A DNA stretch of 64,000 bases from a bacterium (lineage in GTDB: Bacteria > Zixibacteria > MSB-5A5 > GN15 > FEB-12): NCBI GenBank assembly GCA_043811375.1, contig JBDRNJ010000074.1:58880-122879 (forward strand). Direction: 5' to 3'. The position numbers and the translations under genes are program-made. Under the pieces are notes generated by a model, which worked only from the letters and a program-made list of their open reading frames with translations, was not told the origin of the DNA and ran no database searches. Shown piece by piece: positions 6,586 through 40,986 of this stretch. The first letter of the stretch is position 1. Each line of letters starts with the position of its first letter.

Positions 6586-8166
6586 ATGTCAATAGACAAG
6601 GTTAAAACCAGTTCTTTAATCGGTTCGGCCGGTACCATGTCCGCCGCCACCGCCTTCTCCCGAATCCTGGGGTTGATTCGCGAACAGGTTATGGCCTACT
6701 TCTTCGGTGCCGGACTGGCTACCGACGCTTTTGTGACTGCCTTCCGAATTCCCAATCTACTGCGGGATATGTTCGCTGAGGGAGCTCTCTCATCTGCTTT
6801 TGTGCCGGTTTTCAAGGAGAAGATGGTCACCGAATCCAACCGGGAAGCCTTCCTGCTGGGCAACACCGTATTCACGGCTCTGCTGCTGGTGGTGGGACTG
6901 CTGGTACTGTTGGGGATCGTGGCCGCACCGGTTGTTATCTACTTGTTTGCTAACGGCTTTACAGCCGACCCCGCCAAGTTCGATCTGACCGTCAACATGA
7001 CCAGAATCATGTTCCCTTATCTGTTGCTGGTGTCGGTTTCCGCCCTGATTATGGGAATGCTCAATTCATTCGGACGTTTCGGCATACCGGCCATAGCCCC
7101 GGCCATGTTTAATGTTGGCACTGTCGCCACCGTGATATTGCTCTATAACCACTTTCAGCAACCGGCCTATACTCTGGCAATCGGCGTTATGCTGGGCGGC
7201 GCGGCCCAGGCAGCCGTCCAGTTACCGGCCCTGTGGCGCATCGGCTTTCGCTTCCGATTGCGGATAAACTTCCTTGACGAGAGCCTCAAAAAAGTGGGGC
7301 GGCTTCTGCTGCCTATGATAATCGGCATGTCTGCCGGACGGATCAACATCCTGATAACCACGCTGGTGGCTTCATTCCTGATGGAAGGTTCCATCTCGTA
7401 TCTCAACTACTCCTACCGTTTGATATTTTTCCCTATGGGCGTCTTTGCGGTAGCGCTGGGCACCGCCGCCCTGCCCCGAGTCTCGGAGATGGTAACCCGG
7501 CGGGACTGGGCGGGACTGCAAAGTACATACCTGGAAACAATCAACCTCAACATGTTCGTGGTCATCCCATCCGCCTTTTTCCTGGCCCTGTTGGGACCAC
7601 AGGTAGTCAACCTCATTTATGCCTGGGGCGCTTTCTCTCAGTTGGATGCGCTGCACACCGCCAAAGCCCTGCTGCATTATTCATACGGCCTGGTCGGCCT
7701 GGCGGCGGCCCGGGTGACGGTACCGTTTTTCTATGCCTCGGGCGACTCGAAACTGCCCATGCGGTTCACCATGATAGCGGTTGCGGTCAACATGGCGCTG
7801 TACTATCCCATGATCAAATTGCTGGATTTTGCCGGTCTGGCGGCGGCGACGTCAGTTAGCGGTATCGTCAATTTCATCCTCCTGATATATTACCTGCCCT
7901 CCAAGGGTATTATCCTGCCCTGGGGTCGGCTGGGACTCAACTTCCTCAGGATTGGCGTTTGCTCCGGGCTGGCCTTCCATGCCGCGCTGCTGCTGCCATA
8001 CCAGCCGGCGGCCGATTTGTCTCCGGTCATCCATCGCCTGCTTCAACTACTGGTGCCGGCTGCCACCGCGGCGGTGCTGTACCTGTTCTTATGTCTGGTG
8101 CTGCGTGTGCCCGAAGTCAGGCGCCTGACGGGCTGGCTGCGCAGAAAATCGCCGCCTGAGCCATGA
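6586..8166 (+). CDS. murJ: Lipid II flippase MurJ (MviN)
   Basis: SRILGLIRE, TDAFVTAFRIPNLLRDMFAEGALSSAFVP motifs; many TM segments; ATG at 6586 preferred over TTG at 6556. Confidence 0.95.
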   Translation: MSIDKVKTSSLIGSAGTMSAATAFSRILGLIREQVMAYFFGAGLATDAFVTAFRIPNLLRDMFAEGALSSAFVPVFKEKMVTESNREAFLLGNTVFTALLLVVGLLVLLGIVAAPVVIYLFANGFTADPAKFDLTVNMTRIMFPYLLLVSVSALIMGMLNSFGRFGIPAIAPAMFNVGTVATVILLYNHFQQPAYTLAIGVMLGGAAQAAVQLPALWRIGFRFRLRINFLDESLKKVGRLLLPMIIGMSAGRINILITTLVASFLMEGSISYLNYSYRLIFFPMGVFAVALGTAALPRVSEMVTRRDWAGLQSTYLETINLNMFVVIPSAFFLALLGPQVVNLIYAWGAFSQLDALHTAKALLHYSYGLVGLAAARVTVPFFYASGDSKLPMRFTMIAVAVNMALYYPMIKLLDFAGLAAATSVSGIVNFILLIYYLPSKGIILPWGRLGLNFLRIGVCSGLAFHAALLLPYQPAADLSPVIHRLLQLLVPAATAAVLYLFLCLVLRVPEVRRLTGWLRRKSPPEP

Positions 8167-10442
8167 TCCGCCGGTACCCCAGCCTGCTGCTGCTGGTTTT
8201 TGTTATAGCCGGCATTATTATCTCCGACCAGACGCGTTTACCGAGCTGGACCTTCCTGGCCGCCAGCCTGATCTGCTGTCTGGCCGGTCTACTGTCCCTG
8301 ACGAAGCCCAGTCAGCGCAGGTCGGTCATCCTGCTGGTCGCCAGTCTGATGTTTTTTGCCGCCTTCAATTTTGCCTCCCGTCTCTACGATGTCGGACCAT
8401 ACCACATTTCACGTTCATTCGAAGATGGCCGGCGCTACCACATCTATGGCCGGGTTTGTGACTGGCCGGACCTGAAGACCAACCGGACGGAAATTAAAAT
8501 CGCCCTGGATTCTCTGGGCGATGACGTCATCCGCCGGGCTGACGGCAAAATCATGCTGAAACTGAGCGACACTACCACTGCCCTGCAACGTGGAGACCGG
8601 ATCGAGCTCCAGGGTCGGATATATCGGCTCAAGGGCAGCAGTATGCCGGGCAAGTTCGACTACCGACGATATCTCAATCTGAGGGGTGTGTTCGGTATTG
8701 TCTACCTGCCGACCCTGTTGGATGTCCGCATTGATAAAGCCAATCGTTATGGGCTGTTTGGAGTAGTGGACAAGTTAAGAACAGCCATCCGCGACAGTTT
8801 CTATCGCAACCTGTCACCCACGGCGGCAGCCCTGGCCGCGGGCTTTCTGATCGGTGAAACACGGAACATACCTGCCACCATATATCGCCAGTTCCGCGAT
8901 ACCGGGACCATGCATCTGCTGGCCGTTTCCGGTTCCAACGTCGCTTTGGTGGTCCTGGCCTTTGTGTTCCTCCTGCGGCCGCTGCGCCTGTCACCCCGGC
9001 GCCGGGCGGTCGCCCTGTTGGTGGTCGTCTTTGTCTTCGCTCTCCTTTCTTACGGCGAACCTTCGGTCGTGCGGGCTTCCGTCATGGCAGCGCTGGTAAT
9101 CGGGGCACGTTTCCTTCAGAGACGTATCGACCTTAACAATACTATTGCCGCCACCGCCCTGATTATCCTGCTGCTGCAACCGGCACAACTGTTCGATGTC
9201 GGCTTTCAGCTTTCCTTCGTTACCGCCTGGGGTTTGATATTTCTGACTCCCAGATTAGCCGCACCGTTCAAACGTTATCATTCCCGCCGCTGGTATCGAT
9301 GGCTGGTCTTTCCTCTGCTGATTTCACTGGTAGCACAGGTTTGCTCCGCGCCCCTGATTGTACTCTACTTCCATCGCCTGCCAATCATCTCGGTGGTGGC
9401 CAACCTGATTATTGTACCACTGGTGTCGGTAGCCGTCATCGGAGTAATACTGCTGTTGGTAGCTCACCTGATATGGCCGTTGCTGGGACTGCTGGTCGGA
9501 TCAATACAAAATCAACTGCTGATGTTGATTGTGCTGCTCCTCTCGGGACTCGGTGCCGAACAGATACCTTTGCTCAAGATCAGTGATATTCCACCGGTAG
9601 CTGTAGTGCTGTTCTATGTTTTCCTCGTTCTGTCGGTAGTATCCCTGAGGTCGAAACCTGTACGACGAGTGCTGCTGCTGTCAATCATGGTTGTGATTAA
9701 TATGGCCCTGGTCACGAGCGTAGTGACTACCCGGCAACAACCACCCCGGACGGATATCCATGTCTTCGGGCTACCGGGAGGGACCGGCGCCGTAATCAGA
9801 CAGAACGGAAACGAGGCCGACCTGATCGTCACCGGCCTGGCAGGGCGGGATTACCCGGTCGATGAACAGATCCTGCTCCCCCTGTTGGAAGGACTCCAAA
9901 CAGATCGACTCCGTTTCCTGGTGACCGTTGCCGCAGATTACGACGCCGCCGATGACCTGATCCGCCTGGCACGAAAACTTCATGTCCAAACCATCTATGC
10001 CGCAGCCGACCTCGAGCAGGTATTCGCCGACATTGTTCATTTCGACCCCGACGGGCAATCCGTAGAGATCATCAGGTGGCGTACCAACCGGCTCACTGTC
10101 GACCGTCCCGGCTACCATTGTATTGATGAGGGTCTGCTGGCCAATTTCGGGACAACCGCAGTCCTGTTTGCCGACCGCCTGAACCCACAGCAGGTGACAA
10201 TGATTCCTCGCGCACCTGACCAGACTCTTCTCGTCTGTGCCCAATTCACCTCACCGAAAACCGATACTTCATCGTGGGCCGATCGGTTCGAGGCGGCGTC
10301 GACCGTACACCGGCTGCTGGCCGTAATCCCCCCCGGACAGGACACTCCGGGTCCTGTCTATGATTTGAACAGGGTCGGTGCCGTCCGGATAGACCTCTGG
10401 CCCGATGATCCGGCGGCCATGAAGGTAATCCCCCTGCCCTGA
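8163..10442 (+). CDS. comEC: ComEC/Rec2 DNA uptake channel with a degenerate C-terminal MBL-like domain
   Basis: PGKFDYRRYL, GTMHLLAVSGSNV, PSVVRASVM, GFQLSF motifs; ATGA overlap with the murJ stop. Confidence 0.92.
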   Translation: MIRRYPSLLLLVFVIAGIIISDQTRLPSWTFLAASLICCLAGLLSLTKPSQRRSVILLVASLMFFAAFNFASRLYDVGPYHISRSFEDGRRYHIYGRVCDWPDLKTNRTEIKIALDSLGDDVIRRADGKIMLKLSDTTTALQRGDRIELQGRIYRLKGSSMPGKFDYRRYLNLRGVFGIVYLPTLLDVRIDKANRYGLFGVVDKLRTAIRDSFYRNLSPTAAALAAGFLIGETRNIPATIYRQFRDTGTMHLLAVSGSNVALVVLAFVFLLRPLRLSPRRRAVALLVVVFVFALLSYGEPSVVRASVMAALVIGARFLQRRIDLNNTIAATALIILLLQPAQLFDVGFQLSFVTAWGLIFLTPRLAAPFKRYHSRRWYRWLVFPLLISLVAQVCSAPLIVLYFHRLPIISVVANLIIVPLVSVAVIGVILLLVAHLIWPLLGLLVGSIQNQLLMLIVLLLSGLGAEQIPLLKISDIPPVAVVLFYVFLVLSVVSLRSKPVRRVLLLSIMVVINMALVTSVVTTRQQPPRTDIHVFGLPGGTGAVIRQNGNEADLIVTGLAGRDYPVDEQILLPLLEGLQTDRLRFLVTVAADYDAADDLIRLARKLHVQTIYAAADLEQVFADIVHFDPDGQSVEIIRWRTNRLTVDRPGYHCIDEGLLANFGTTAVLFADRLNPQQVTMIPRAPDQTLLVCAQFTSPKTDTSSWADRFEAASTVHRLLAVIPPGQDTPGPVYDLNRVGAVRIDLWPDDPAAMKVIPLP

Positions 10443-10550: not shown

Positions 10551-11750
10551 ATGAGTCTATCCGGTAACCTGAAAACGGTTTCCTTCCCCGATATCCTGCA
10601 ACTGTTGTCCACCGGCAAGAAAAGCGGTGTGCTGGAACTGAAGACAGCCACCCGCCAGAAAGAGGTAGCCTTCAAAGAGGGCAATATCGTCTATGCCTCC
10701 TCCATCAATTCCTCAGAGGATCTGCTGGGCAACATGCTGCTCAAACGGGGTCGCATTTCCAAAAGCGACCTGGAGCGGGCTATCACCCTCCACAAGCAAA
10801 CCGGTCGGCAGTTGGGCACCACCCTCATCGACATGAACCTGTTTGATAAAAGCGACATTACCGAATGCCTTAAGCTGCAGATAGAAGAAATCGTGTATAA
10901 CCTGTTTTCATGGAAGGAAGGCAACTTCGTCTTTCACGAGGGAACCTCTCCCAAAAACGTTCCCTTCCATGTGGAACTGATCACCATGAACGTCATCATG
11001 GAGGGAACCCGGCGCATCGACGAATGGCTCGAAATCCAAAAAATCCTTCCCCCGGATGACGTGTTGCTGGCTATTGTCAGATCACCCAAAATCAACCGTG
11101 AGGAAATCGTTTTCTCGCTCGACGAGTTCCGAATGCTGGCTCTGATCAATGGGGAACGCACCCTGCCTGATTTGATCAACCTGTCAACTATGGGCGAGTT
11201 CGTTACCAGTCGGGCAGTGTACCGTCTGATGCTCAACAAATTGGTGGAAGTCGCCGGCAAACAAGTCGAGGAAGTCCAGGAAGAAGATGAAGAGGAAATA
11301 ATTCTGCGCCTGGTTTTTGATCTGTACAATCACTGCTTCTACCAGATACAGTCCTTGTTCGAATTCAAGCTGGGAGGAGAAAACACCCGCTTTGCTTCCC
11401 TGGCTGCCCAATACCGTAGCGGACTGATGAACTACTTTCCGGGCACCGACCCCAAATCAGACATAAAACCCTCCTTCGACAAATTTCTCACCGCTGCCAA
11501 AGCAATCCCCTCTGCGATAAGGCTGCAGAAACTGATGTCCCAGCTGGAACAGGCTCTGGCCGAACAACTGGAATTTGTCTACCAACTGCTGGGAATAGGG
11601 ACCTTCCGAGAAGCTGTAACCGGTGTCAAGAAAGAGATATCAGAACCGCTCGCCAAACGGCGGGAACTGGTCAAACAATATGGAATCGAAGATACATTCT
11701 ACCGTACACTCAAACGTGCTGATAGAGCCGTTAAAATGGTGCGAGGGTAA
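10551..11750 (+). CDS. DUF4388 (PATAN-like) protein with an MshEN-like tandem helix motif
   Basis: LSGNLKTVSFPDILQLLSTGKKSGVL...LFSWKEGNFVF...MEGTRRIDEW. Confidence 0.8.
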   Translation: MSLSGNLKTVSFPDILQLLSTGKKSGVLELKTATRQKEVAFKEGNIVYASSINSSEDLLGNMLLKRGRISKSDLERAITLHKQTGRQLGTTLIDMNLFDKSDITECLKLQIEEIVYNLFSWKEGNFVFHEGTSPKNVPFHVELITMNVIMEGTRRIDEWLEIQKILPPDDVLLAIVRSPKINREEIVFSLDEFRMLALINGERTLPDLINLSTMGEFVTSRAVYRLMLNKLVEVAGKQVEEVQEEDEEEIILRLVFDLYNHCFYQIQSLFEFKLGGENTRFASLAAQYRSGLMNYFPGTDPKSDIKPSFDKFLTAAKAIPSAIRLQKLMSQLEQALAEQLEFVYQLLGIGTFREAVTGVKKEISEPLAKRRELVKQYGIEDTFYRTLKRADRAVKMVRG

Positions 11751-11754
11751 CGAC

Positions 11755-12117
11755 ATGAAACAAGGGATTGTTCTGGGAACCGTATTTGTAATCGCTGCCG
11801 CCACACCGGCACAGGCAGCCAATCTGGCCGTAATCACCAGTCCTCCGACACTGCTGAACTTGTTCATCCTGATCTTCGCGGTGGGCTGTCTGGCCTCATC
11901 CGCCAAGGTGATGTCTTTGGTCAGGGGTGGCCAACTCAGCCGAAGCTGGCAAATGTTCGCAGCCGGTTTTGCAGTGTTGACTATATGCCAATTAGCGATA
12001 CTAAGCAGCCATCTGGAACTGATCCTGCTGCCGTCGTTTGTCGTCCCGGGCGCACTGGTTGTCATGAGCGGGCTGTTTCTGTTCGGCATTATTGAAACCA
12101 AACGCGCACTGAGCTGA
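11755..12117 (+). CDS. Small membrane protein (signal/TM plus about 3 TM helices)
   Basis: ATG 4 nt after the DUF4388 stop; hydrophobic segments. Confidence 0.7.
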   Translation: MKQGIVLGTVFVIAAATPAQAANLAVITSPPTLLNLFILIFAVGCLASSAKVMSLVRGGQLSRSWQMFAAGFAVLTICQLAILSSHLELILLPSFVVPGALVVMSGLFLFGIIETKRALS

Positions 12118-12128
12118 CGAAGTAAAGG

Positions 12129-12157
12129 TTGACATAAGTCGCTGCGATATTTATAAT
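12129..12157 (+). promoter_or_regulatory. Perfect-consensus sigma70 promoter
   Basis: TTGACA(12129-12134)-17nt-TATAAT(12152-12157). Confidence 0.85.
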
Positions 12158-12222
12158 TATCTATTAATAAAAAGAGTGTTACCACTCAACCTATTGTCTT
12201 AAGAGTAATTACAGGGAAACCG

Positions 12223-13074
12223 ATGGCCCGCACTCACGAGTTGAAAGATAGAATTACTAAATGCGAGAAAATTCTGGAAACTGACCCCAGTTCTCAGATT
12301 TTTGCAGCTCTGGCCGACGCCCACCGCAAGAAGGGCGAGCTCGACCGAGCCTTTCGTATTTGTCAAAACGGCCTGAAAATCCATCCCTCTTACGGATCGG
12401 CGCACGTCGTCATGTCCAAAATCAATCTTGACCGGGGTCTGTATGATTGGGCTGAAACCGAGGCACAAAAGGCCGTCAAGATCGATGGAGCTACGCGCTC
12501 AATAGAATTGCTGCTGGCTGAGATCTACCTGTACAGGGGTGAGTTCAACTCCGCCCTCAAGCTGCTTAACCGACTTCACGAAGCTGATCCCGACAATGAT
12601 CAGATCAATAAAATGCTGGATCTGGCGCACCGAATACCCGAGGAGCAGACAGTTCTAATGGGCGATCACGAATCCGAGGACACCGGGAACACCATCGTTG
12701 AGTCAATCGATACCGGCACCCGCCGGCTCAACATGTCCGAAGTTATCAGCCAGAGCGTAACTGTGGAGGGAATCGATGGTGCCCTGTTTCTCAACGGGGA
12801 GGGGTTGGTCGTCGAAGCCGAGTGGCCGCTGAAGTGGGACCAGACTGTCTGCGCCGCCACTCTGGGAAACATTGGCTCTTTGCTCGACCGGGAACCGATT
12901 CAGAACACTTTCGGCACTGCCCACAACATTCTTATCGAAACCGACGACTCGATTTTCTACATCGCCCGGGTCGCCGATGGTGTATTCATCTTCGCGGCTG
13001 CCGGCTCGACCAACCTGGGAACGCTGCGCATGAAAATCGATAATATGCTGCTGGATTATCAGCAGTCATCATAG
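12223..13074 (+). CDS. TPR protein with a C-terminal roadblock/LC7-like domain
   Basis: TPR helices (FAALADAHRKKGELDRA...HPSYGSAHV); C-terminus GIDGALFLNGEGLVV...NLGTLRM. Confidence 0.8.
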   Translation: MARTHELKDRITKCEKILETDPSSQIFAALADAHRKKGELDRAFRICQNGLKIHPSYGSAHVVMSKINLDRGLYDWAETEAQKAVKIDGATRSIELLLAEIYLYRGEFNSALKLLNRLHEADPDNDQINKMLDLAHRIPEEQTVLMGDHESEDTGNTIVESIDTGTRRLNMSEVISQSVTVEGIDGALFLNGEGLVVEAEWPLKWDQTVCAATLGNIGSLLDREPIQNTFGTAHNILIETDDSIFYIARVADGVFIFAAAGSTNLGTLRMKIDNMLLDYQQSS

Positions 13075-13084
13075 AGGGACTATT

Positions 13085-14074
13085 ATGGAACTGACGGCAC
13101 GGATTGTACGTCAAACACTACTCATCTCACTGACGATTCTGATGGCACCGCTGTTGCTCTTCCCCGATCGGCTGGGGACGGGACTGGCCGGAGTGGCGCT
13201 AATGAACGGCGTGTTTGAGTTGACCTTCTACGCTGTGGTATCGTACCTGCTTTTTCGGCATGCCACGCTGGGCAAGATTGTTCAGATTTCACTGCTCTGC
13301 CTGGGTTTCCGATTGCTGCTGGGTGTCTTTTTCGGCATGTTCGTCGCGGCCATGTATTCGATGAACCTGGCCATATCGATAAAACTGGGCCTGGCGGCAT
13401 ATCTTCCAGCGGTCCTGCTTCACATAGCCGTCACTCCCCTGGTACTCAAACCGATCAGCAGGCAGTTGGTACCATCGGTAACCCGACGTCGGACGGCACC
13501 CGAGTCTCCGGCGCCGGCAGAAACGACGGACACTAACATGACTACGATGTCGGCAACCGGGAAAGGCGCACCTGTTCGGCTTGAGACGAACAACACACCT
13601 GCCGACGTTGTCCGAGCATCCGCAGAGACTCGGTCCGGTATTACCCCCGCAACCGAAAACACCGACGATGGTTTCGACCGTGCTGTCCGCTATATCGGTG
13701 AGGACGGTTCCGTCCGGCTGGCCGCCGTGGTCGACCAGGAGGGGTTGCTGCTGGGCTGTTTCGTCAGGGGTGACCTCCTGGCCGATGACTGGGCGCCACT
13801 GGCGCTAGTAATTAGCGAAGCCGGCCAAACCGCCCTCAAGCGAACCGGCCAGGATTCACTTGAGAGAATTGACATGCTGCTCAAGGAGGATCGGATTGTC
13901 GTTGCCCGTCAGCCATCATGGTCGCTGTTGGTAATTTCCCAGCGCCAGACTAATGACACCCTCAATATCAGAATCAATCAGGGACTCGAAATAATCAGGA
14001 AATACATGGCACAGCGGTACAGTCACGAACTGTCCGTAAGCCCGGAGAGAACCTATGTATCAAGTGCTCAGTGA
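13085..14074 (+). CDS. Membrane protein (about 4 TM) with a Pro/Thr linker and a C-terminal roadblock-like domain
   Basis: Hydrophobic N-terminus; VRLAAVVDQEGLLLG roadblock-type motif. Confidence 0.7.
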   Translation: MELTARIVRQTLLISLTILMAPLLLFPDRLGTGLAGVALMNGVFELTFYAVVSYLLFRHATLGKIVQISLLCLGFRLLLGVFFGMFVAAMYSMNLAISIKLGLAAYLPAVLLHIAVTPLVLKPISRQLVPSVTRRRTAPESPAPAETTDTNMTTMSATGKGAPVRLETNNTPADVVRASAETRSGITPATENTDDGFDRAVRYIGEDGSVRLAAVVDQEGLLLGCFVRGDLLADDWAPLALVISEAGQTALKRTGQDSLERIDMLLKEDRIVVARQPSWSLLVISQRQTNDTLNIRINQGLEIIRKYMAQRYSHELSVSPERTYVSSAQ

Positions 14075-14396
14075 ACTGAACAAGACCACCGGCGTCACCG
14101 GCTGTATGGTGGTGGGCAATGACGGCATGGTTATCGCCGCCGACCTTGCAACCGGCTTTGACGGTGATGCTGTCGGAGCGCTGGCAGCTTCCATTACGTC
14201 CAACATACAGAAATCACTGCAACGGCTGGAAACGCACCCGGCCAGACAGGTCACCATCGAAGCCGACAACGCCAAACTGTTTTTCACTCACGCTGAAAAG
14301 GGAATGCTGGTGGTCACCACCGAAAAGAACGTCAACATCGGACTGGTGCGCCTGGAGATGAAAAACGCCCTCAACAAACTAAAAGAAATACAATAA
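14055..14396 (+). CDS. Stand-alone roadblock/LC7 protein (MglB/MglC-like)
   Basis: GVTGCMVVGNDGMVIA...NIGLVRLEMK; overlaps the upstream gene by 20 nt. Confidence 0.85.
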   Translation: MYQVLSELNKTTGVTGCMVVGNDGMVIAADLATGFDGDAVGALAASITSNIQKSLQRLETHPARQVTIEADNAKLFFTHAEKGMLVVTTEKNVNIGLVRLEMKNALNKLKEIQ

Positions 14397-14427
14397 ACTG
14401 TACCGGAAAGTAGTGGGATAGTCAGGC

Positions 14428-15504
14428 ATGGTATCAATCAACTACTCATCGCGGGAAGTTTGCTGCAAAATTGTCTATTACGGCCCGGGGTTGTCCGGCA
14501 AAACCACAAATTTGCAGTACGTGCACTCCAAGGTGCCGTCGAACACCCGGGGTAAACTGATCTCGCTGGCGACGGAGGCCGACCGAACCCTGTACTTTGA
14601 CTTCCTGCCCATTAACATAGGCACCATCAACGGCTTTGCCGCCAAGTTCCAGTTGTACACGGTGCCGGGGCAGGTCTACTACAACGCCACTCGCAAGCTT
14701 GTATTGCGCGGGGTTGACGGTGTCGTTTTTGTGGCTGACAGCCAACCGGATAAGATGGATGAGAACATCGAGTCTCTAACCAATCTCGAAGAGAATCTGC
14801 GCGAGTATGGCTATAACATCAACGACATGCCAATGGTTATACAGTACAACAAGCGAGATTTGCCGGGAGTAATGACGGTCGACCAACTCAATGCCATACT
14901 TAACCCACAGGGTCGGTCGTGTTATGAAGCCTCGGCCACGATCGGTAACGGTGTTTTCGACACGCTCAAACTGATTATCAAACTGGTGCTGGAAAAGGCC
15001 AAATCGACCGGCCCGCCGCGGTCATCTCCCCCTGATCAGCCAACAGAGGTGACGGCTCCATCCGTGTTGGTCACCACCGCCACTACGGGCCGGCACGAAT
15101 CGATACCCCAGGCTGCTGGCGTCATGGCGGGACCGGAGTCGCCAACATCGGCTGCTTCTACCAGGACGGTCACAGTTGCTGCCCCGGTTGATACACCGAT
15201 GTCAGCTACAGAAGAAGCCGCACCGAAACCGACCTATACGTCCTTCCCGCAATCGGCGCGTCCCTTCCCCGGTAGCGAAGAATCGGCCGCGGCTCCCCGA
15301 AAAATCTCTCCAACCGGTTTTGCTCCGACACGGCAAGCACGACCGGAAGAAGCATCAATAGAGAAAAAAGCAATCGAACACGGTAGTGATGATCCGGACA
15401 CGCCCTCGGAATCGACGAGAACTCCCTTAATGGCGCCCGCTCTGCGACGACGAAGTTATAAGAAGAAACGAGGTTTCTTCAAGCGTTTGTTCGGACTCAA
15501 ATAG
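14428..15504 (+). CDS. mglA: MglA-family small GTPase with a long C-terminal extension
   Basis: KIVYYGPGLSGKTTN, DRTLYFDF, YTVPGQVYY, NKRD motifs as in Myxococcus MglA. Confidence 0.95.
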   Translation: MVSINYSSREVCCKIVYYGPGLSGKTTNLQYVHSKVPSNTRGKLISLATEADRTLYFDFLPINIGTINGFAAKFQLYTVPGQVYYNATRKLVLRGVDGVVFVADSQPDKMDENIESLTNLEENLREYGYNINDMPMVIQYNKRDLPGVMTVDQLNAILNPQGRSCYEASATIGNGVFDTLKLIIKLVLEKAKSTGPPRSSPPDQPTEVTAPSVLVTTATTGRHESIPQAAGVMAGPESPTSAASTRTVTVAAPVDTPMSATEEAAPKPTYTSFPQSARPFPGSEESAAAPRKISPTGFAPTRQARPEEASIEKKAIEHGSDDPDTPSESTRTPLMAPALRRRSYKKKRGFFKRLFGLK

Positions 15505-15521
15505 ACATCAAGGAGGCATAA

Positions 15522-16013
15522 ATGGCTGACGACAGCTTGATAATCTACGAAGAAGAGATTACCCAGATCGAAGCACTCATTTCCAAAATGCTGCAGAGTG
15601 CTGAGGCCAAGTGTGCTCTGCTGGTTGACAAGGACGGCCACCTGATCACACGACAGGGATTCACACATTCACTGGATACCACCGCTCTGGCGGCATTGCT
15701 GGCCGGCTCTTTTGCCTCCACCAGGGAAATCGCCCGATTGGTAGGTGAATCGGAATTCTCGGTCCTGTTCCATCAGGGCAAGAAAGACCACATCCACATG
15801 AGCCTTGTTGGTGAACGCTCAATCCTGGTAGTTATTTTCGATGACCGCACTACCATCGGCATGGTGCGACTGTGCGCCAAGGAAACGGCTGCCGAATTAA
15901 CCGAGGTTTTTATTCGCATTGAGAATGGTCCCCGAGATAAATCCGACTACGCCGTTTCCAGCGACTTCGCCAGCAGAGCGCAGGACAAATTGGACGACAT
16001 TTTCCAGGATTGA
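15522..16013 (+). CDS. mglB: MglB (roadblock-domain GAP of MglA)
   Basis: IYEEE...LVDKDGHLI...DTTALAALLAGS...FHQG...VIFDDRTTIGMVRL and acidic C-terminal helix LDDIF; AAGGAGG RBS. Confidence 0.9.
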   Translation: MADDSLIIYEEEITQIEALISKMLQSAEAKCALLVDKDGHLITRQGFTHSLDTTALAALLAGSFASTREIARLVGESEFSVLFHQGKKDHIHMSLVGERSILVVIFDDRTTIGMVRLCAKETAAELTEVFIRIENGPRDKSDYAVSSDFASRAQDKLDDIFQD

Positions 16014-16085
16014 CCTCCCCACCGGGAAAGAGAGGCAGGGGTATTGTAAAACCTGCCAACAACGCCGCACAACGGGAAACAGAGA

Positions 16086-17780
16086 ATGTCATCAGAACTC
16101 GGGGCAATACTGGTCGATGCCGGTAAGATCACTCAGGAACAAGCCGAAAATGCTGCGGCATACAGCAAAGACCACAAAGAGAAATTCGAGGCTGCGCTGG
16201 TCAAGACAGGAGCCGTAGCCTCCGAAGACGATATCGCCAAACTGATCGGCCAGCACCTCAAGATCGGCACTCTCCGTCTCAGCGATATCGAACTCAACCC
16301 CGAGATCGTCCAACTCATTCCATCCGATATCGCCCGCAAGTTCAAAGTCATCGCAGTCTCCAAAATCAACAGGACCCTGTTGGTGGCTATCGGCGACCCC
16401 AACAACATCTACGTTCTGGACGCCATCAAGTTTATCACCGGACTTGTCGTCCAACCTGTTATCTCTCCGGAAAACGCCATCGAAAAAGCAATCGACGTCT
16501 ACTACACCGACAGCGGCAACCTCTCCGAAATCGTCAAGGGCATGGAAGAAGATTCCTACCTGGAAGTGGTAGAAGCCGAAAAGGGGCCTACCGAGTCCGA
16601 CCTGCTTTCAGCCATCCAGGATAAACCGCTGGTCAAGCTGGTCGATTCGATCATCGGCGATGCCATCCGCATGGGCTCTTCCGATATCCATATGGAGATG
16701 TACGAAAAACGTATCCGCGTTCGCTATCGCATCGACGGCGATTTGCGTGAGATGGAACCGCTGCCGTTTAAGTATCGTTCCGCTATCGTCTCACGTGTCA
16801 AAATTATGGCCGACCTGGACATCTCCGAACGGCGACTGCCGCAGGATGGCCGCATTAAGATCAAGATCAGCGGACGTACGGTTGACCTGCGAGTCTCCGT
16901 CCTGCCGACCATCTTCGGCGAAAAGGTCGTCATGCGTATTCTGGATCCGATGGCGCTGATGGTCGATATGACCAAGCTTGGGTTCCGGAAGGAGGATTTG
17001 TCCAAATTCGATGATGCCATCCATCTTCCTTTCGGCATCATTCTGGTTACCGGTCCGACCGGTTCCGGAAAAACAACCACGCTGTACTCGGCACTCAAAC
17101 AACTCAACCAAATCGACGTGAACATTATGACGGCCGAGGACCCGGTGGAGTTCAATTTCGACGGTATCAACCAGGTAGCCGTCCGATCCGGCATCGGGTT
17201 GAGTTTTGCCGCTTCGTTACGGTCATTTCTGCGACAGGACCCGGATATTATCATGGTCGGAGAAATCCGTGACACCGAAACTGCCGAGATCGCCATCCGG
17301 GCAGCTCTGACCGGTCACCTTGTTTTCTCGACCCTGCACACCAACGATGCCCCCTCATCCATCAACCGACTGATTGACATGGGCATCCCCTACTACCTGG
17401 TCGCCTCGTCCACCAAATTGATCATGGCCCAGCGAATGACGCGCAAGATATGCCAGACGTGTAAGGAAGAAATCAACCTGACCCAGCAACAGATGGAAAG
17501 CCTGGCTCCGACAAAAGAACTGGCACGCAATATCCGGGCTTTCCGTGGCGTCGGCTGCCGCGAATGCAATGAAACCGGAAAAGCCGGGCGAACTGGCATT
17601 TACGAAGTCATGCCGATTAGCCCCAGCATCGAACAACTGATCCTTGACAAAGCCTCCGACACCGAAATCAAGAAAATCGCAATGGAGGAGGGAATGTTCA
17701 GCCTGCGTATGTGCGCCATCGAGAAAATGAAGCAGGGATTGATCGACATCGACGAAGTCTTCGCCGTATCTGCTGTCTAA
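16086..17780 (+). CDS. pilB: Type IV pilus extension ATPase PilB
   Basis: SDIH, RLPQDGR, GPTGSGKTT, LRQDPD, GHLVFSTLHTN; CxxC...CxxC zinc motif. Confidence 0.95.
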   Translation: MSSELGAILVDAGKITQEQAENAAAYSKDHKEKFEAALVKTGAVASEDDIAKLIGQHLKIGTLRLSDIELNPEIVQLIPSDIARKFKVIAVSKINRTLLVAIGDPNNIYVLDAIKFITGLVVQPVISPENAIEKAIDVYYTDSGNLSEIVKGMEEDSYLEVVEAEKGPTESDLLSAIQDKPLVKLVDSIIGDAIRMGSSDIHMEMYEKRIRVRYRIDGDLREMEPLPFKYRSAIVSRVKIMADLDISERRLPQDGRIKIKISGRTVDLRVSVLPTIFGEKVVMRILDPMALMVDMTKLGFRKEDLSKFDDAIHLPFGIILVTGPTGSGKTTTLYSALKQLNQIDVNIMTAEDPVEFNFDGINQVAVRSGIGLSFAASLRSFLRQDPDIIMVGEIRDTETAEIAIRAALTGHLVFSTLHTNDAPSSINRLIDMGIPYYLVASSTKLIMAQRMTRKICQTCKEEINLTQQQMESLAPTKELARNIRAFRGVGCRECNETGKAGRTGIYEVMPISPSIEQLILDKASDTEIKKIAMEEGMFSLRMCAIEKMKQGLIDIDEVFAVSAV

Positions 17781-17934
17781 GCCCTTACATCCTCACAGCC
17801 ACCCTATTGTCCGACAACGGCTTACTTTTGCCCAACCAGCCGCTTCCAGTCAAGATTTTGGTCCAATCAGCCGATACTACAACAAGATACATATAATAAG
17901 TACGGTCGAAAGCCACCACCAGCGGGAGCAACAT

Positions 17935-19011
17935 ATGGTAACTTTGAGAGAACTTCTGGAACACATGGTTAAAATGGGAGCCTCCGATTTGCATCTGACA
18001 GTTGGTGCGCCACCGGTCGTCAGAGTGGATGGTAAGCTGCAGCGTCTCAAATACGATTTGCTGACCGCTGAATTAATCAAGAAGCTCTCCTATTCGATGC
18101 TCAACGAAAAACAGAAGCTGAAATTCGAACAAAACTCGGAACTGGATTTCTCCTTTGGTATCGAACAGATGAGTCGCTTTCGATGTAATATGTTCGTTCA
18201 GCGCGGTAACGTCGCTGTAGCTCTGCGCCAGATTCCGTACAAGATCAGATCGTTCGATGAGCTTGGCATGCCCAAGGTCGTCGCCGATTTTTCCCGTCTG
18301 CCGCGTGGGCTGGTGCTGGTTACAGGTCCCACCGGATCAGGCAAGTCCACCACCCTAGCCTCGATAATCGACAAGATCAACAAAGAACGGCCCGTGCATA
18401 TCATCACCGTCGAAGATCCTATCGAGTATTTACACCGCCATCAAACCGCCCTTATCAACCAGCGTGAAGTATACTCGGATACCAGTTCCTTTGCCAGCGC
18501 TCTGAAGTACGCCCTGCGTGAGGACCCTGACGTAGTGCTCGTCGGCGAGATGCGCGACCTGGAAACGATGGAAGCGGCTCTCTCGATTGCTGAAACCGGC
18601 CATCTGGCCTTTGCCACCCTGCACACCAACTCGGCTGCCGAATCGATCAATCGTGTCGTCGATTCCTTCCCGACCAACCAGCAGGAACAGATTCGGATTT
18701 CGCTCTCGTTTTCACTGCAAGCCATCATTTCACAGACACTGATACCCAGGATTGGCGGCGGTCGGTTAGTGGCCATGGAAATTCTGATCTGTACCCCCGC
18801 CATACGCGCCCTCATCCGTGATGACAAGGTTCAGCAGATGTACTCGATGATACAGTCGGGACAAAAATACGGTATGAAAACCATGAATCAGTCGTTGGCC
18901 GAAATGCAGATTTCAGGCAAGATTTCTCTAAATGACGCCATGGCCTACAGCCACAATCCGCAGGAGTTGGGAGAAATGTTGTCGCGTCAGAAAACACCGG
19001 CCTTTTCATAA
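17935..19011 (+). CDS. pilT: Type IV pilus retraction ATPase PilT
   Basis: ASDLHL, GPTGSGKSTT, EDPIE, LREDPD, AETGHL, AIRALIR. Confidence 0.96.
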   Translation: MVTLRELLEHMVKMGASDLHLTVGAPPVVRVDGKLQRLKYDLLTAELIKKLSYSMLNEKQKLKFEQNSELDFSFGIEQMSRFRCNMFVQRGNVAVALRQIPYKIRSFDELGMPKVVADFSRLPRGLVLVTGPTGSGKSTTLASIIDKINKERPVHIITVEDPIEYLHRHQTALINQREVYSDTSSFASALKYALREDPDVVLVGEMRDLETMEAALSIAETGHLAFATLHTNSAAESINRVVDSFPTNQQEQIRISLSFSLQAIISQTLIPRIGGGRLVAMEILICTPAIRALIRDDKVQQMYSMIQSGQKYGMKTMNQSLAEMQISGKISLNDAMAYSHNPQELGEMLSRQKTPAFS

Positions 19012-19038
19012 CCTGAAGGATGAGGAAGGATCAAACTG

Positions 19039-20235
19039 ATGCCAGTTTTTGAATACAAAGGCAAAACCCTCGCGGGAGCTGTCGTACAGGGCCAACTGAA
19101 AGCCAAAGGACGAGAAGACATCGAGCGCGTCCTCAGACAGAACCGCATCATTGCCAAGTCGATCACCAAAAAGGCTCCCGATCTGCAAATCAAGATCGGA
19201 ACTGGAGTCAAAAAGATCGAAGTCTCGCGTTTCACCCGGCAGTTTGCCACCATGATCGGTGCCGGACTACCCATGGTGCAATGCCTGGAGATTCTGGCCA
19301 CACAGCAAGAGAACAAGGCACTAGCCAAAATCATATCCCAGGTAAAAGAAGCGGTGCAGGGAGGTTCCACTCTCTCGGAAGGCCTGGCGCGTCACCCCAA
19401 GATCTTCGATAAACTGTATACCAACATGGTGGAAGCCGGCGAAATCGGCGGTGCCCTGGACGCCATCCTGGTCCGTCTGGCAGTTTACCGCGAGAAGGCT
19501 GACAAACTTGTCCGCAAGGTCAAGGGCGCTATGGTTTATCCCTCAGTCATCATTTTCGTCGCCGCCGCCGTTACCATTGGTATGTTGGCCTTTATTGTAC
19601 CGGTCTTCGCCAAGATGTTCGGCGGACTCGGAGCAGAATTGCCCAAGCCGACTCAGGTGGTGCTGCAAATCTCTAATTTCCTGCAATCGAATTTCCTGTA
19701 TCTGTTCTTCGGAGCTCTCGGCCTGACAGGTGCCTTCCTGTGGTGGAAGAAAACACCTACCGGTGCCCTGATGACCGACCGCACCCTGCTGGTGATGCCG
19801 GTCCTGGGCAACCTGGTACGTAAGTCCTCGGTGGCCCGCTTCACCCGCACCCTGGGAACCCTGCTGTCATCCGGTGTTTCCATTCTCGATGCCCTGGATA
19901 TCACCGCCAAAACTGCCGGCAACCTGGTCATCGCCAACGCTATCAACAAATCGGTGCTGGCTATCGCCGAGGGTGACACGATTACCGGACCCCTGAGAGA
20001 TTCCGGTGTTTTCCCGCCAATGGTCACACAGATGATTGCAGTCGGTGAAAAAACCGGTGGCCTGGACGAGATGCTGTCCAAAATCGCCGACTTCTATGAT
20101 GAAGAAGTAGACGACGCCGTATCGGCCCTGACCTCAGTCATCGAACCGATCATTATCGTGTTTATGGGTGTCATAATCGGCGGTATCCTGGTAGCCATGT
20201 ACCTGCCGATGTTTGACATCATCGGTAAAATTTAG
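19039..20235 (+). CDS. pilC: Type IV pilus platform protein PilC (T2SS F family)
   Basis: FTRQFATMIGAGLP, AGEIGG, VGEKTGGLDEML, EPIIIV...MYLPMF. Confidence 0.96.
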   Translation: MPVFEYKGKTLAGAVVQGQLKAKGREDIERVLRQNRIIAKSITKKAPDLQIKIGTGVKKIEVSRFTRQFATMIGAGLPMVQCLEILATQQENKALAKIISQVKEAVQGGSTLSEGLARHPKIFDKLYTNMVEAGEIGGALDAILVRLAVYREKADKLVRKVKGAMVYPSVIIFVAAAVTIGMLAFIVPVFAKMFGGLGAELPKPTQVVLQISNFLQSNFLYLFFGALGLTGAFLWWKKTPTGALMTDRTLLVMPVLGNLVRKSSVARFTRTLGTLLSSGVSILDALDITAKTAGNLVIANAINKSVLAIAEGDTITGPLRDSGVFPPMVTQMIAVGEKTGGLDEMLSKIADFYDEEVDDAVSALTSVIEPIIIVFMGVIIGGILVAMYLPMFDIIGKI

Positions 20236-20325
20236 GACAGGTGCGGACCACCTTCACAACGAACGAACAAAATAAACATCGACCGGCGGCGCCCCCGGGG
20301 GCGTCGTTGGCGTTTTAGGGCCAAA

Positions 20326-22005
20326 ATGGAACGCCTCAAGCAACTGGGCTGGTTTATCCCGCTGCGGCTGGTTTCTTACATTCTCCTGCTGCTGGTAGTA
20401 GTGTTCTGGATGCAGTTCCCGGAATTCCTGAGACTGTGGTTTGTCGCCTATTCCGGTTTCACCCTGGCGCTGACCCTGTCGTTCGCCTGGAATCGTCACC
20501 GCAAGATGGACCACGTTACCGACACCATCACCGCCCTGCAATTCCTCTTTGAGATCATCCTCGAATCGGGCGTGCTCTACATCACCGGCAACGTCAACTC
20601 ACCCTTTTCAGCCCTGTTCATACTGACCATTGTCTCAGCGGCCCTGACATATCGTCTGGTCGGAACCCTGGTGGTAGCGTCGCTGGTGTCACTGGCTTAC
20701 ACTTTCATTATCTGGCTCGGCTTCGGCGGCAGTACCGACACCGGTCTCTCCCTGCAGGCGTTGAGAACCATATTCGTCAGTCACGACAGCACCTTCTATG
20801 CCATTTTCCTGCACCTGCTGATCTTTTACCTGATTGCCTTCGTCTCCGGCTACCTGGCCGAGCGACTCAAACAGCAGCATCGACAACTGGCCAACACCTC
20901 GCAAGCTCTTAAAAGAGCCCTTCTGGAAACCGACGATATCCTGCTTCGCCTCAGTTCCGGTTTGCTGACCATCGACGCTGAAGGTCGTGTGATTTTTTTC
21001 AACCCGGCTGCGGGTCTGATCCTCGGCTACCGGGAAGAGCAGGTCAGGGGAATGTATTGCGAAGAGGTGTTTGCCGAACGCATGCCCAGTCTGGCATGTC
21101 ACCTTATGGACGGCATCCGTCACGGTATCGCTCACCCCCGAGAGGAAATCGACATCCTGAACAACGACCTGGCGATAGTCCCCCTCGGTCTCTCCACTTC
21201 CATCCTGACTGAAGAAAACCATGAACTGCGGGGTGTTATTGCCATTTTCTCCGACCTGACCGAGGCCAAACAGATGGAGGCCAAGATCCGCGCCGCTGAC
21301 AGGCTGTCCGCCGTCGGCGAACTCTCGGCGTCAATCGCTCACGAAATCCGCAATCCGCTGGCATCAATCTCCGGTTCCGTCGAGGTACTCAGGAACGAAC
21401 TGGAAGTTTCAGCGGATAATGCCCGCCTGATGGATCTGATCGTCAAGGAGTCACACCGCCTCAGCCGCATCCTCAGCGAGTTTCTTCAGTACGCCCGGAT
21501 CGACCGGCCCACCTACAGCAAGGTCGAACTATGCCACATCATTAATGAGGTAATCCGGATCCTCCACCACCATGAATCGTTCACTCCCGATATTCGAGTA
21601 AACTTCGAAACCGAGGAATCTATCATTTACGTCGTGGGCGATGAAGACCTGATCAAACAACTACTGCTGAATTTGGCGGTTAACGCCTGCGAAGCCATTG
21701 CCGACCGGTCCGGCGAACTAACCTTCCGCCTGGCAGTCAACGCCACCCCCGACACAGTGGAGTTGTACGTTCGGGACAATGGCGCCGGAATGACCGAGAA
21801 CGTTCTCAAAAAGGTCTACCATCCCTTTTATTCCACCAAGAAAGAGGGGACCGGCCTGGGGTTGTCAGTGGTGCACCGCATCGGCTCAGCCCTCAAGCTC
21901 AACATCAATGTTGACTCTCAACCGGGTGAAGGCACCACCTTCCTGGTCGAGTTTCAACAGTACCGTCAGACGACATCGGAAGGCATCGCCGCCCTCACGG
22001 GATAA
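20326..22005 (+). CDS. pilS: PilS-like sensor histidine kinase (TM-PAS-HisKA-HATPase)
   Basis: TGNVNSPFSALF TM motif, PAS, AHEIRNPL H-box, N/G boxes; position after pilC. Confidence 0.85.
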   Translation: MERLKQLGWFIPLRLVSYILLLLVVVFWMQFPEFLRLWFVAYSGFTLALTLSFAWNRHRKMDHVTDTITALQFLFEIILESGVLYITGNVNSPFSALFILTIVSAALTYRLVGTLVVASLVSLAYTFIIWLGFGGSTDTGLSLQALRTIFVSHDSTFYAIFLHLLIFYLIAFVSGYLAERLKQQHRQLANTSQALKRALLETDDILLRLSSGLLTIDAEGRVIFFNPAAGLILGYREEQVRGMYCEEVFAERMPSLACHLMDGIRHGIAHPREEIDILNNDLAIVPLGLSTSILTEENHELRGVIAIFSDLTEAKQMEAKIRAADRLSAVGELSASIAHEIRNPLASISGSVEVLRNELEVSADNARLMDLIVKESHRLSRILSEFLQYARIDRPTYSKVELCHIINEVIRILHHHESFTPDIRVNFETEESIIYVVGDEDLIKQLLLNLAVNACEAIADRSGELTFRLAVNATPDTVELYVRDNGAGMTENVLKKVYHPFYSTKKEGTGLGLSVVHRIGSALKLNINVDSQPGEGTTFLVEFQQYRQTTSEGIAALTG

Positions 22006-26469: not shown

Positions 26470-27513
26470 TTACAGGTCTTTTCTGCTGAAGCGGTCTATG
26501 GCTGCCCAAGCTAATTTCTCAAGGATGCCTCGCCAGGACCGACAAACAGAAGTTTCGTCCAAGATTGAATCTGTATGAATCGACAGGCGATAGCCATACT
26601 TAGCATGAACTATAGAGTTTCTGAACATGTACAGTGTTGTGGCAAGAATATCTGCGTCGTCTTTAGCGATAAGACTAGCCTCAAGCGCTCGGTTTAGCAA
26701 CACTCCATCTGCGAGCCCTTTGATCAATCGCTCTAATGGAATCCTTTCACTACTTGTTAGCATTGTGGCAGCTTTAGTGAGAAATTCACGATCACTCATA
26801 GATTTGTCACAGCGTAAATGTGAGAATTCTCTTTCTTGCTCAAAAAATGCGTAATATTCAAGCACCCGGTAGTATTGGATGCACGCCGAACAATCATCCA
26901 TATCACGGCTTGCATAGCAAAAAAGACGAAGAGGGATAAGCTCGTTCACTGCTGGAAGCAGGGAATCCCTTTCCTTAATTGTTGGTCTTTCTTCTTCAGG
27001 TTGAAGCTCGTCACACCAATCCTCAGGCACTTTGATCGAAAATACGTTTAACGTTATTTTGAATCTCTGAAAGTATCGAATCAAAAAGTTCAGTAGATAT
27101 GCCTCTACTAACTCAGGGGGAATTCCTAAAATACGCACACTAGCTACACAATCCCAATCCCCAAAATAGTTGTTATCAAAGTAACTATCGAAAAGGTAGA
27201 TTCCAAGGGGTGTAACTTCCCCTACTGACGCTCCTGCTCTTCCAAGTTTACACTCGTAGTACTTCGGGGGATTGGAGACAAAGAATTCGTGGAACTGCCC
27301 TAAAGAATAACCTTGCCGGCCATGTGGTTTGAAGCCGGGAGTTTTTTTCATAACCTCTTCAAGGTTAGGGTAGATTTCTTTTGATGAGAAGACACTTAGA
27401 CCAAGCAGAGGCCAGCAAATCTCACAGAGTGTTTCACCCTTTTTGAAATCAAGATGCTCATCGTACCAGCTAGGAGGCTCAAACTTAGTTGGTATAGTAG
27501 TCATGGTCAACAA
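26470..27513 (-). CDS. AT-rich hypothetical protein with a C-terminal HEPN-like domain
   Basis: YYRVLEYY...LYMFRNSIVHAK (RxxxxH); composition visibly more AT-rich than the flanks. Confidence 0.6.
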   Translation of the reverse strand: MLTMTTIPTKFEPPSWYDEHLDFKKGETLCEICWPLLGLSVFSSKEIYPNLEEVMKKTPGFKPHGRQGYSLGQFHEFFVSNPPKYYECKLGRAGASVGEVTPLGIYLFDSYFDNNYFGDWDCVASVRILGIPPELVEAYLLNFLIRYFQRFKITLNVFSIKVPEDWCDELQPEEERPTIKERDSLLPAVNELIPLRLFCYASRDMDDCSACIQYYRVLEYYAFFEQEREFSHLRCDKSMSDREFLTKAATMLTSSERIPLERLIKGLADGVLLNRALEASLIAKDDADILATTLYMFRNSIVHAKYGYRLSIHTDSILDETSVCRSWRGILEKLAWAAIDRFSRKDL

Positions 27514-39118: not shown

Positions 39119-39133
39119 TACCTTACCTTACCT

Positions 39134-40693: not shown

Positions 40694-40986
40694 TCACACA
40701 ATCCCGTATATAGTCAGTATATCGGCTTAACTTGACGGTTGTTAATGATACTGAAAGACTTAGATAGAAATGACCGAACCCGGTCGGGATCGGATAATTG
40801 ATGAGAGCCTTACCAGAGACAGCCCCAGAACCCCTATGGCCGGCATGGCCGGCGCCGGGCGACCCTGTCGGGCAGGTGTCAGACGGCCGATGGTTTTTCA
40901 GTGGCTTTCGTGGGCTACACAGACTATATATGCAGCGTAACAAGCCCGGCCCGGTACCGTAGTAGAGAGTAATGGAGAGGAATACT

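Follow-up and report, generated by a model that had tools for sequence, protein, structure and literature searches.

A conserved MglA/MglB gene unit with several roadblock domains and a predicted membrane-targeting MglA tail, next to the type IVa pilus motor genes of Zixibacteria

Through which route does the small GTPase MglA act on type IV pili in bacteria without RomR? In Myxococcus, the path from MglA to the pilus motor is still indirect, no MglA-PilB contact having been detected there, and many other phyla have MglA without RomR. This question is addressed here by a locus of the Zixibacteria located at positions 10551-22005 of a stretch of 64,000 nucleotides (hereafter the window; contig JBDRNJ010000074.1, from a genome that is 95% complete). 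Eleven open reading frames (ORFs) and the comEC gene upstream of them are all found on the plus strand, the co-directional run that the original prediction had described. The domains it had named (DUF4388, TPR, Robl_LC7, Ras/Arf-like GTPase, PilB, PilT, PilC and PilS-type kinase) were recovered by hidden Markov model searches (Table 1). Seven of these genes, running from the PATAN (DUF4388) gene to mglB, are conserved as a unit, which probably controls the place or the timing of type IVa pilus assembly by the adjacent PilB. All evidence is genomic and drawn from metagenome-assembled genomes.

MglA is matched in 119 of the 121 genomes of the phylum, nearly always as a single copy. Synteny was compared in 19-kb regions around mglA from 60 genomes belonging to 18 families, picked for the presence of mglA and for long contigs. 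The complete gene order is kept in 57/60 loci, four of which have apparently split pil genes, and the order through pilB in 59/60. Recurring in 18 families, the arrangement is not due to chance. Next to its pilus motor genes, a non-myxobacterial phylum thus conserves an MglA/MglB module that has additional roadblocks, as had been anticipated. The three other loci comprise one at a contig end and two of family f11, in which the seven-gene unit and pilB remain together and pilT, pilC and pilS lie elsewhere. The gene pilB is 3' of mglB in 60/60 loci, this broken pil operon included. The seven genes are jointly absent in one family, f17, where no mglA match was found in 3/3 genomes (96%, 88% and 52% complete). 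In the two of them whose locus was read (G105 and G137), comEC directly abuts pilB and the seven regulatory genes are missing there. The 96% complete G105 yielded no roadblock match and no PATAN orthologue, and it retains pilB, pilT, pilC, pilS and pilM. Since f17 retains pilus motor genes without it, the unit is dispensable for keeping them, which fits a regulator. Another genome, G004 (96% complete), has no mglA, roadblocks or type IVa pilB and retains pilM; it is not counted as a loss because an assembly gap is possible.

The gene comEC is located outside the seven-gene unit but directly upstream of it in 56/60 loci. This position would suit a switch acting as an on/off control of DNA-uptake pili rather than as a motility polarity axis. 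The same can be said of dprA, found in 61/61 genomes, of the flagellin genes that the window's genome also carries, and of CheW, found in 81/121 genomes and not found in the 40 others, among which the single-contig genome G070 has a complete locus. The unit therefore persists without chemosensory genes. Competence gating nevertheless appears unlikely to us. Indeed, comEC stands beside pilB in the unit-less f17 and is missing from three f16 loci whose unit is intact, so its linkage is independent of the unit. Furthermore, dprA also occurs in 10/14 control genomes, and what the MglA systems described so far affect is where pili stand or whether they form. ComEC measures 895 aa in the unit-less G105 (L251:8033-10720) and about 720-790 aa in most other genomes.

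The window's MglA aligns with the M. xanthus MglA structures (PDB 5YMX and 6IZW) with an E-value of 1e-77. Among the 60 loci, the G1 pattern is found in 59, the arginine finger in 60, the TVPGQ motif in 60 and the exact NKRD motif in 53; by these intact catalytic motifs, the G domain is that of a canonical Group 1 MglA. Behind it comes a long tail that was absent from the original prediction. It comprises 118-315 low-complexity residues in 60/60 loci, because of which MglA (314-511 aa in 60/60 loci) exceeds the 150-240 aa window for single-domain GTPases of PMC4316618, an analysis from which MglA sequences above 240 aa were left out. Long MglAs with an unexplained C-terminal part had been noted earlier (PMC3000849). 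The tail gave no Robl_LC7 match. It ends in a basic, aromatic motif, with two or more Phe/Trp among the last 22 residues, whose net charge has a median of +8. In the window this end reads GFFKRLFG, identical at 7/8 positions to GFLKRLFG, the core of the membrane-targeting tag of Escherichia coli MinD as printed in PMC5471200. A hydrophobic-moment rule, the first applied, passes 27/60 MglA tails vs 24/2,427 background C-termini. A post-hoc pattern rule passes 55/60 tails and 78/80 in a second, partly overlapping set of loci, compared with 14/2,426 other C-termini of the genome, 0/60 linker segments and 0/44 Gemmatimonadota-like MglAs. The end of the tail is thus predicted to be a MinD-type membrane-targeting motif through which MglA would bind the membrane.

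The partner MglB matches M. xanthus MglB over its full length, C-terminal helix included (profile E-value 2e-45). Its residue D36 is conserved in 50/51 sequences, G39 in 51/51 and R116 in 51/51. As a D36/G39 roadblock encoded beside mglA and carrying an acidic C-terminal helix, it groups by sequence with the coupled clade; its score against NCBIfam NF052242 (Thermus type) is 91.9, below the cut-off of 200. The C-terminal helix of MglB has been tied to nucleotide exchange (PMC6785124). Of the KRK surface through which MglB binds MglC (PMC10329633), R115 is kept (it is the R116 above), K14 is variable and the position of K120 is taken by a glutamate, next to which stands a basic residue. The free roadblock displays D23 and G24 in 54/54 sequences and I25 in 53/54, corresponding to the MglC-type (MglB_orphan1) signature D26-G27 with I28 defined in PMC4719450. 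The Asp-Gly pair, which is frequent among other roadblocks too, is weak evidence for MglC kinship. The matches listed at E<=0.1 included no chain named MglC, and the quick tree of the roadblocks contained no MglC sequence.

The original prediction had counted four roadblock domains in the locus, and each is backed by profile, PDB or structure evidence. The genome's three Pfam-detectable roadblocks are all located there. The C-termini encoded by the genes starting at 12223 and 13085, whose failure to fold as roadblocks would have counted against the claim, match the free-roadblock profile with profile-profile probabilities of 99% (TPR fusion) and 96% (fusion to four transmembrane segments, 4TM). 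Robl_LC7 matches 28/60 orthologues of the 4TM fusion. The model of the latter begins with four helices, continues with a disordered linker and ends in a roadblock that superposes on solved roadblocks with Z-scores of about 16-18.5 (best match Z 18.5, root-mean-square deviation 1.6 over 117 residues). In addition, many proteins of 450-1,190 aa (P0138, P0141, P0143, P0149 and others) have, at their C-terminal end, one roadblock match or two that are akin to the free roadblock.

Such a collection of roadblocks raises the possibility of a Ragulator-like scaffold, in which the TPR, membrane and free roadblocks would form a heteromeric platform that is anchored by the 4TM part and recruits MglA/MglB. 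It is partly compatible with a GTPase tethered by its own tail, the difference being what provides the anchor. In the quick tree the four roadblocks separate into four groups, one for each, over the 18 families (Shimodaira-Hasegawa-like approximate likelihood ratio test values of 91-97), their genes are tightly packed (the gap in front of the free roadblock gene has a median of -20 nt across loci), and roadblock-on-roadblock stacking was shown for MglB/MglC (PMC10329633), all of which would favor a platform. As an anchor, the scaffold is made less likely by the 6/60 loci (families f9 and f14) in which the 4TM part is absent and leaves no room for a separate gene, by the candidate membrane anchor that MglA itself possesses and by the 21 Gemmatimonadota-like cores described below, in which no 4TM protein was found. 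The Ragulator analogy, already drawn for Myxococcus MglB/MglC (PMC10329633), covers several roadblock domains, a small GTPase and a membrane link. However, Rag GTPases have a C-terminal roadblock domain of their own and MglA does not, no p18-like scaffold was identified, and these roadblocks resemble LAMTOR2 no more than they resemble other roadblocks. A scaffold of this kind is thus possible, though we hold it doubtful.

A candidate for carrying the output is the first gene of the unit. DUF4388 is the PATAN domain, which the protein, by its PF14332 match, shares with the PatA-type regulators. A MshEN-like helical insert (residues ~56-112) is supported by the model, by fold searches and by NF053729 (45.4 bits vs a cut-off of 38; 57/57 orthologues match at E<=0.001). 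It is followed by a winged-helix-like part (~170-240) and a C-terminal domain (245-399). No Response_reg match was found, the C-terminal domain being all-helical in the model instead; searched within the whole-protein model, this domain gave no Foldseek match at E<=0.001 (best Z 7.6). The c-di-GMP (cyclic di-guanosine monophosphate) motif of MshEN, which we take to be a tandem helical motif with an arginine before Leu-Gly, is poorly represented. At the presumed arginine position of the first repeat, Leu occurs in 40/57 orthologues and Arg in 5/57, Arg occurs in 15/57 at that of the second repeat, and the window's protein has L58 and Q87. A canonical c-di-GMP site was not accepted and c-di-GMP sensing by the PATAN protein is doubtful because this arginine is mostly missing. 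In Synechocystis, PATAN domains bind PilB1 at its N-terminal region, and PilC at its N-terminal domain, in two-hybrid assays, and mglA/mglB genes often adjoin PATAN genes (10.1101/2021.06.11.447907). By analogy, the PATAN protein is a candidate PilB adaptor. It shares with the cyanobacterial PATAN-REC regulators of the PatA type (PixE, PixG, LsiR) the PATAN/DUF4388 domain and the helical insert related to the PilB N-terminus. It differs from them by having a helical C-terminal domain in place of a receiver domain and by being encoded with a GTPase module instead of a chemosensory operon. Two further DUF4388 proteins are encoded in genome G000 (C9:69779-72981 and C14:56917-57807); one of the two (706 aa, with a MshEN-like start) is encoded directly 3' of a PilT/PilU paralogue. 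The small membrane protein encoded after PATAN, found in 59/60 loci, has four hydrophobic segments, the first of which may be a signal peptide. No Pfam family was common to more than one of its 42 orthologues, and a comparison with the 4TM domain gave no kinship.

The window's pilB is the genome's sole type IVa pilB; the other close paralogue belongs to another locus with a secretin, which we read as encoding type II secretion. Judged by profile matches, a type IVa pilus set (PilB, PilT, PilC, PilM, secretin and pilins) is present. The genome's inventory comprises pilM, two secretins and 11 pilin-type motifs, besides flagellin, CheW and GGDEF proteins. The gene pilM was found in 120/121 genomes of the phylum. 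A second pilM-like gene occurs in families f9, f12 and f14 (e.g. G097 C1:275773 and G101 C1:699126), often ~26-28 kb from mglA on the same contig in f9 and f14. No response regulator gene is adjacent to that of the PilS-like kinase; a regulator that we read as PilR-like is encoded on contig C39, next to two pilin genes.

The region has 13 promoter-like sites vs 11 expected in shuffles, and the single 12/12 match is located at 12129-12157. A match of at least 10/12 precedes the TPR-roadblock gene in 23/59 loci (21/27 in the window's taxonomic order, 2/32 elsewhere), the same criterion giving 0-2 loci at each of the other ten junctions. Because of this match, the run is in the window's order probably not one transcript and would be split into comEC-PATAN-small protein and the TPR-roadblock gene onwards.

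Outside the Zixibacteria, parts of the unit are found in other surroundings. Relatives of the membrane roadblock belong to Zixibacteria throughout, among the matches listed. Among the best 120 of 746 homologues of the TPR-roadblock protein, the named organisms are Zixibacteria (GN15 included) and one unclassified 'bacterium'. A cluster look-up of 10 distant roadblocks returned a single named protein, from Armatimonadota. A distant roadblock family with three Gemmatimonadota-named members led to 80 metagenome contigs with Gemmatimonadota-like loci. The 21/21 loci that span the core encode PATAN, a TPR:roadblock fusion, a roadblock, MglB and MglA, with no membrane genes, no pilB and no pilC. The core can thus be kept away from motor genes. 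The order of the core genes is nearly the one found here. In contrast, the Gemmatimonadota-like cluster has the mglB-mglA order, lacks the membrane roadblock and the small membrane protein, and includes an extra ~900-aa TPR protein and a double DnaA-like ATPase; its MglA is tail-less (198-211 aa in 43/43 complete copies). Its flanks are che rather than pil genes, cheA lying upstream in 11/12 loci reaching that far and cheR, cheD and cheB downstream in 12/12. At L245:2271-18281 and in 11 similar loci among L171-L250, cheW, cheA and cheC on one side and cheR, cheD, cheB and two cheW on the other wrap the core, and the double ATPase is a 642-aa protein with two DnaA-like domains. The same core, flanked by motor genes in Zixibacteria, is thus flanked by sensory genes in these loci. 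The TPR-roadblock likeness is one of architecture, the quick tree not settling the orthology of the two groups.

Such a change of neighbours leads one to ask whether pilB adjacency is merely historical, the unit acting on the division site, a growth pole or another secretion or motility machine. The MinD-like tail would agree with this, as would the Gemmatimonadota-like core, whose che operon includes a double DnaA-like ATPase but no pil genes, and murJ and rpsT show that housekeeping neighbours are conserved at the Zixibacteria locus too. Yet murJ is found in 41/60 loci (a count partly limited by the fetched span) vs 60/60 for pilB behind mglB, the broken operon of f11 included, and PATAN domains have a reported link to PilB (10.1101/2021.06.11.447907). 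Another target is therefore very unlikely.

All parts of the locus are known and their combination is a variant of a known system. MglA, a second roadblock and a PATAN gene were already catalogued together as MglA-MglB-MglB-PATAN neighbourhoods, e.g. in Chloroflexus (Wuichet and Sogaard-Andersen 2014). Unlike the present locus, these neighbourhoods come without pil motor genes in the accessible table (no PilT, GSPII or T2SE terms), and the accessible part of the paper displays no Zixibacteria rows, tail motif or membrane-fused roadblock. Likewise, no paper on the locus, on an amphipathic MglA tail or on a membrane-fused roadblock was found among the matches listed, with subscription journals and bioRxiv supplements beyond reach. 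With the Myxococcus module the locus has in common a Group 1 MglA carrying the arginine finger and TVPGQ, a coupled MglB that keeps the C-terminal helix, another roadblock displaying the MglC-type D-G pair, the involvement of TPR and the pilB-pilT-pilC-pilS neighbours. It differs by an MglA of 358 aa (vs 195 aa in Myxococcus) that bears a predicted membrane anchor, by four roadblocks of which one is fused to TPR and one to a membrane part, and by the location of all genes directly upstream of pilB, vs the MglA, MglB, MglC, RomR/RomX, RomY and SgmX set of Myxococcus. No SgmX-sized TPR protein is encoded in the locus, and of the 48 receiver-domain proteins listed for a single query in the 95% complete genome, none has the composition of RomR (a receiver domain, a Pro-rich linker and a Glu-rich end), RomR alone being sought. 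Orthology of the TPR-roadblock protein to SgmX was not accepted, a 283-aa protein ending in a roadblock being compared with a TPR-repeat protein of ~1,060 aa; SgmX carries 14 TPR repeats (PMC7668184).

Two comparisons made by the original prediction need to be narrowed. The statement that the Myxococcus genes are not adjacent to the pil motor genes stands for mglB (MXAN_1926); for mglC (MXAN_5770) and sgmX (MXAN_5766) it is weakened by locus tags that lie near that of pilB (MXAN_5788), with what is presumably the main pil cluster filling the gap. The proximity of these tags can be seen in PMC9765702. The mglA-mglB order, opposed to mglB-mglA in Myxococcus, was found as announced, but it is also catalogued for Fibrobacter succinogenes, along with a 313-aa MglA (Wuichet and Sogaard-Andersen 2014).

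With moderate confidence, we favor a membrane-tethered MglA/MglB switch that regulates PilB, its output probably passing through the PATAN protein. MglA would cycle between GTP and GDP, with MglB as GTPase-activating protein (GAP) and perhaps as exchange factor via its acidic C-terminal helix. It would hold to the inner membrane by an amphipathic helix at the end of a long, flexible tether, a tail that may replace the RomR-type polar recruitment of Myxococcus. The free roadblock might act like MglC and dock MglB, the TPR and membrane roadblocks positioning the complex, and membrane-held MglA-GTP would be confined by MglB. The PATAN protein, possibly together with the TPR domain as an MglA-GTP effector, would convey the output to PilB. 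Every interaction proposed here is taken from homologues (PMC7668184, PMC7519303, PMC3983030, PMC12024867, PMC11580455, PMC9481161, PMC3441718). MglA controls pili in Myxococcus, Bdellovibrio and Thermus, and it is by analogy that we infer a role in polarity.

Several observations weigh against this switch. The 60 loci were selected by mglA presence and are related to one another, not independent. The hydrophobic-moment rule passed just 27/60 tails and the better-fitting pattern rule was written after the tails had been viewed. Family f17 has kept its pilus motor genes in the absence of the unit, which they therefore do not require, and pilB and pilC are missing from 21/21 Gemmatimonadota-like cores. 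In the window's order, the internal promoter match parts the PATAN gene from mglA. Finally, no direct interaction of M. xanthus MglA with PilB, PilT or PilM was detected.

An extended version of the membrane-tethered switch would see in the locus a bacterial Ras-family GTPase with an independently acquired K-Ras-like design (G domain, hypervariable tether, basic anchor), placed on a heteromeric platform of roadblocks, Ragulator-like and including an integral-membrane subunit, and polarising PilB via a PATAN adaptor without RomR or dedicated chemosensory input. Taken whole, it seems rather unlikely. If it were true, the locus and its Gemmatimonadota version would be one core module, sensory-wired in one phylum and motor-wired in another. 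The locus offers soluble candidate links between MglA and the motor (the PATAN protein and the TPR-roadblock), a possible alternative localisation of the GTPase via its own membrane tail and a bacterial parallel to the membrane-anchored small GTPases and multi-roadblock platforms of eukaryotes. Cultured Gemmatimonas and Fibrobacter strains with MglA/MglB pairs may serve as proxies.

Table 1. Features of the locus, in window coordinates
Feature	Position	Strand	Evidence or remark
comEC, DNA-uptake channel	8163..10442	+	Pfam Competence and DUF4131
PATAN (DUF4388) protein, 399 aa, candidate PilB adaptor	10551..11750	+	PF14332 118.8 bits
Small membrane protein, 120 aa	11755..12117	+	Hydropathy
Sigma70-type promoter match TTGACA-17-TATAAT, 12/12	12129..12157	+	5' of TPR-roadblock gene
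TPR (~1-135) and roadblock (~170-283) fusion, 283 aa	12223..13074	+	Robl_LC7 23.0 bits (cut-off 23)
4TM (~5-128), disordered linker, roadblock (~193-316)	13085..14074	+	Robl_LC7 15.7 bits only
Free roadblock, 113 aa	14055..14396	+	Robl_LC7 56.7 bits; 20-nt overlap with preceding gene
mglA, Group 1 GTPase, 358 aa (G domain ~1-195, 162-aa low-complexity tail)	14428..15504	+	
MglA C-terminal basic-aromatic motif KKKRGFFKRLFGLK, predicted membrane-targeting helix	15460..15501	+	
mglB, canonical, predicted GAP, acidic C-terminal helix	15522..16013	+	Robl_LC7 56.2 bits
pilB, type IVa pilus extension ATPase	16086..17780	+	TIGR02538 683.5 bits (cut-off 675.65)
pilT, retraction ATPase	17935..19011	+	TIGR01420 496 bits (cut-off 319)
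pilC, platform protein	19039..20235	+	PF00482; best NCBIfam is Myxococcus-type PilC, below cut-off
PilS-like sensor kinase	20326..22005	+	6TM_PilS, PAS, HisKA and HATPase domains

Beyond pilS, unlabelled ORFs of ~590-620, 205-210 and 340-350 aa recur in many relatives of the window's order (L033, L034, L036-L041, L043-L050 and L165-L169); the window has unrelated minus-strand genes there instead. Elsewhere in the window, ORFs of 347 and 431 aa (26470-27513 and 40972-42267) have no Pfam match at E<=1e-6. On the minus strand at 35586-40693, SpoIID-like, AnmK and glycoside hydrolase family 3 genes, resembling peptidoglycan recycling, are located behind a GAF-GGDEF diguanylate cyclase gene. Two tandem minus-strand ORFs of ~1,100 aa (48045-51347 and 51991-55278), again without Pfam match at E<=1e-6, lie next to a gene (55829-62497) that codes for a 2,222-aa protein with Ig-like repeats.

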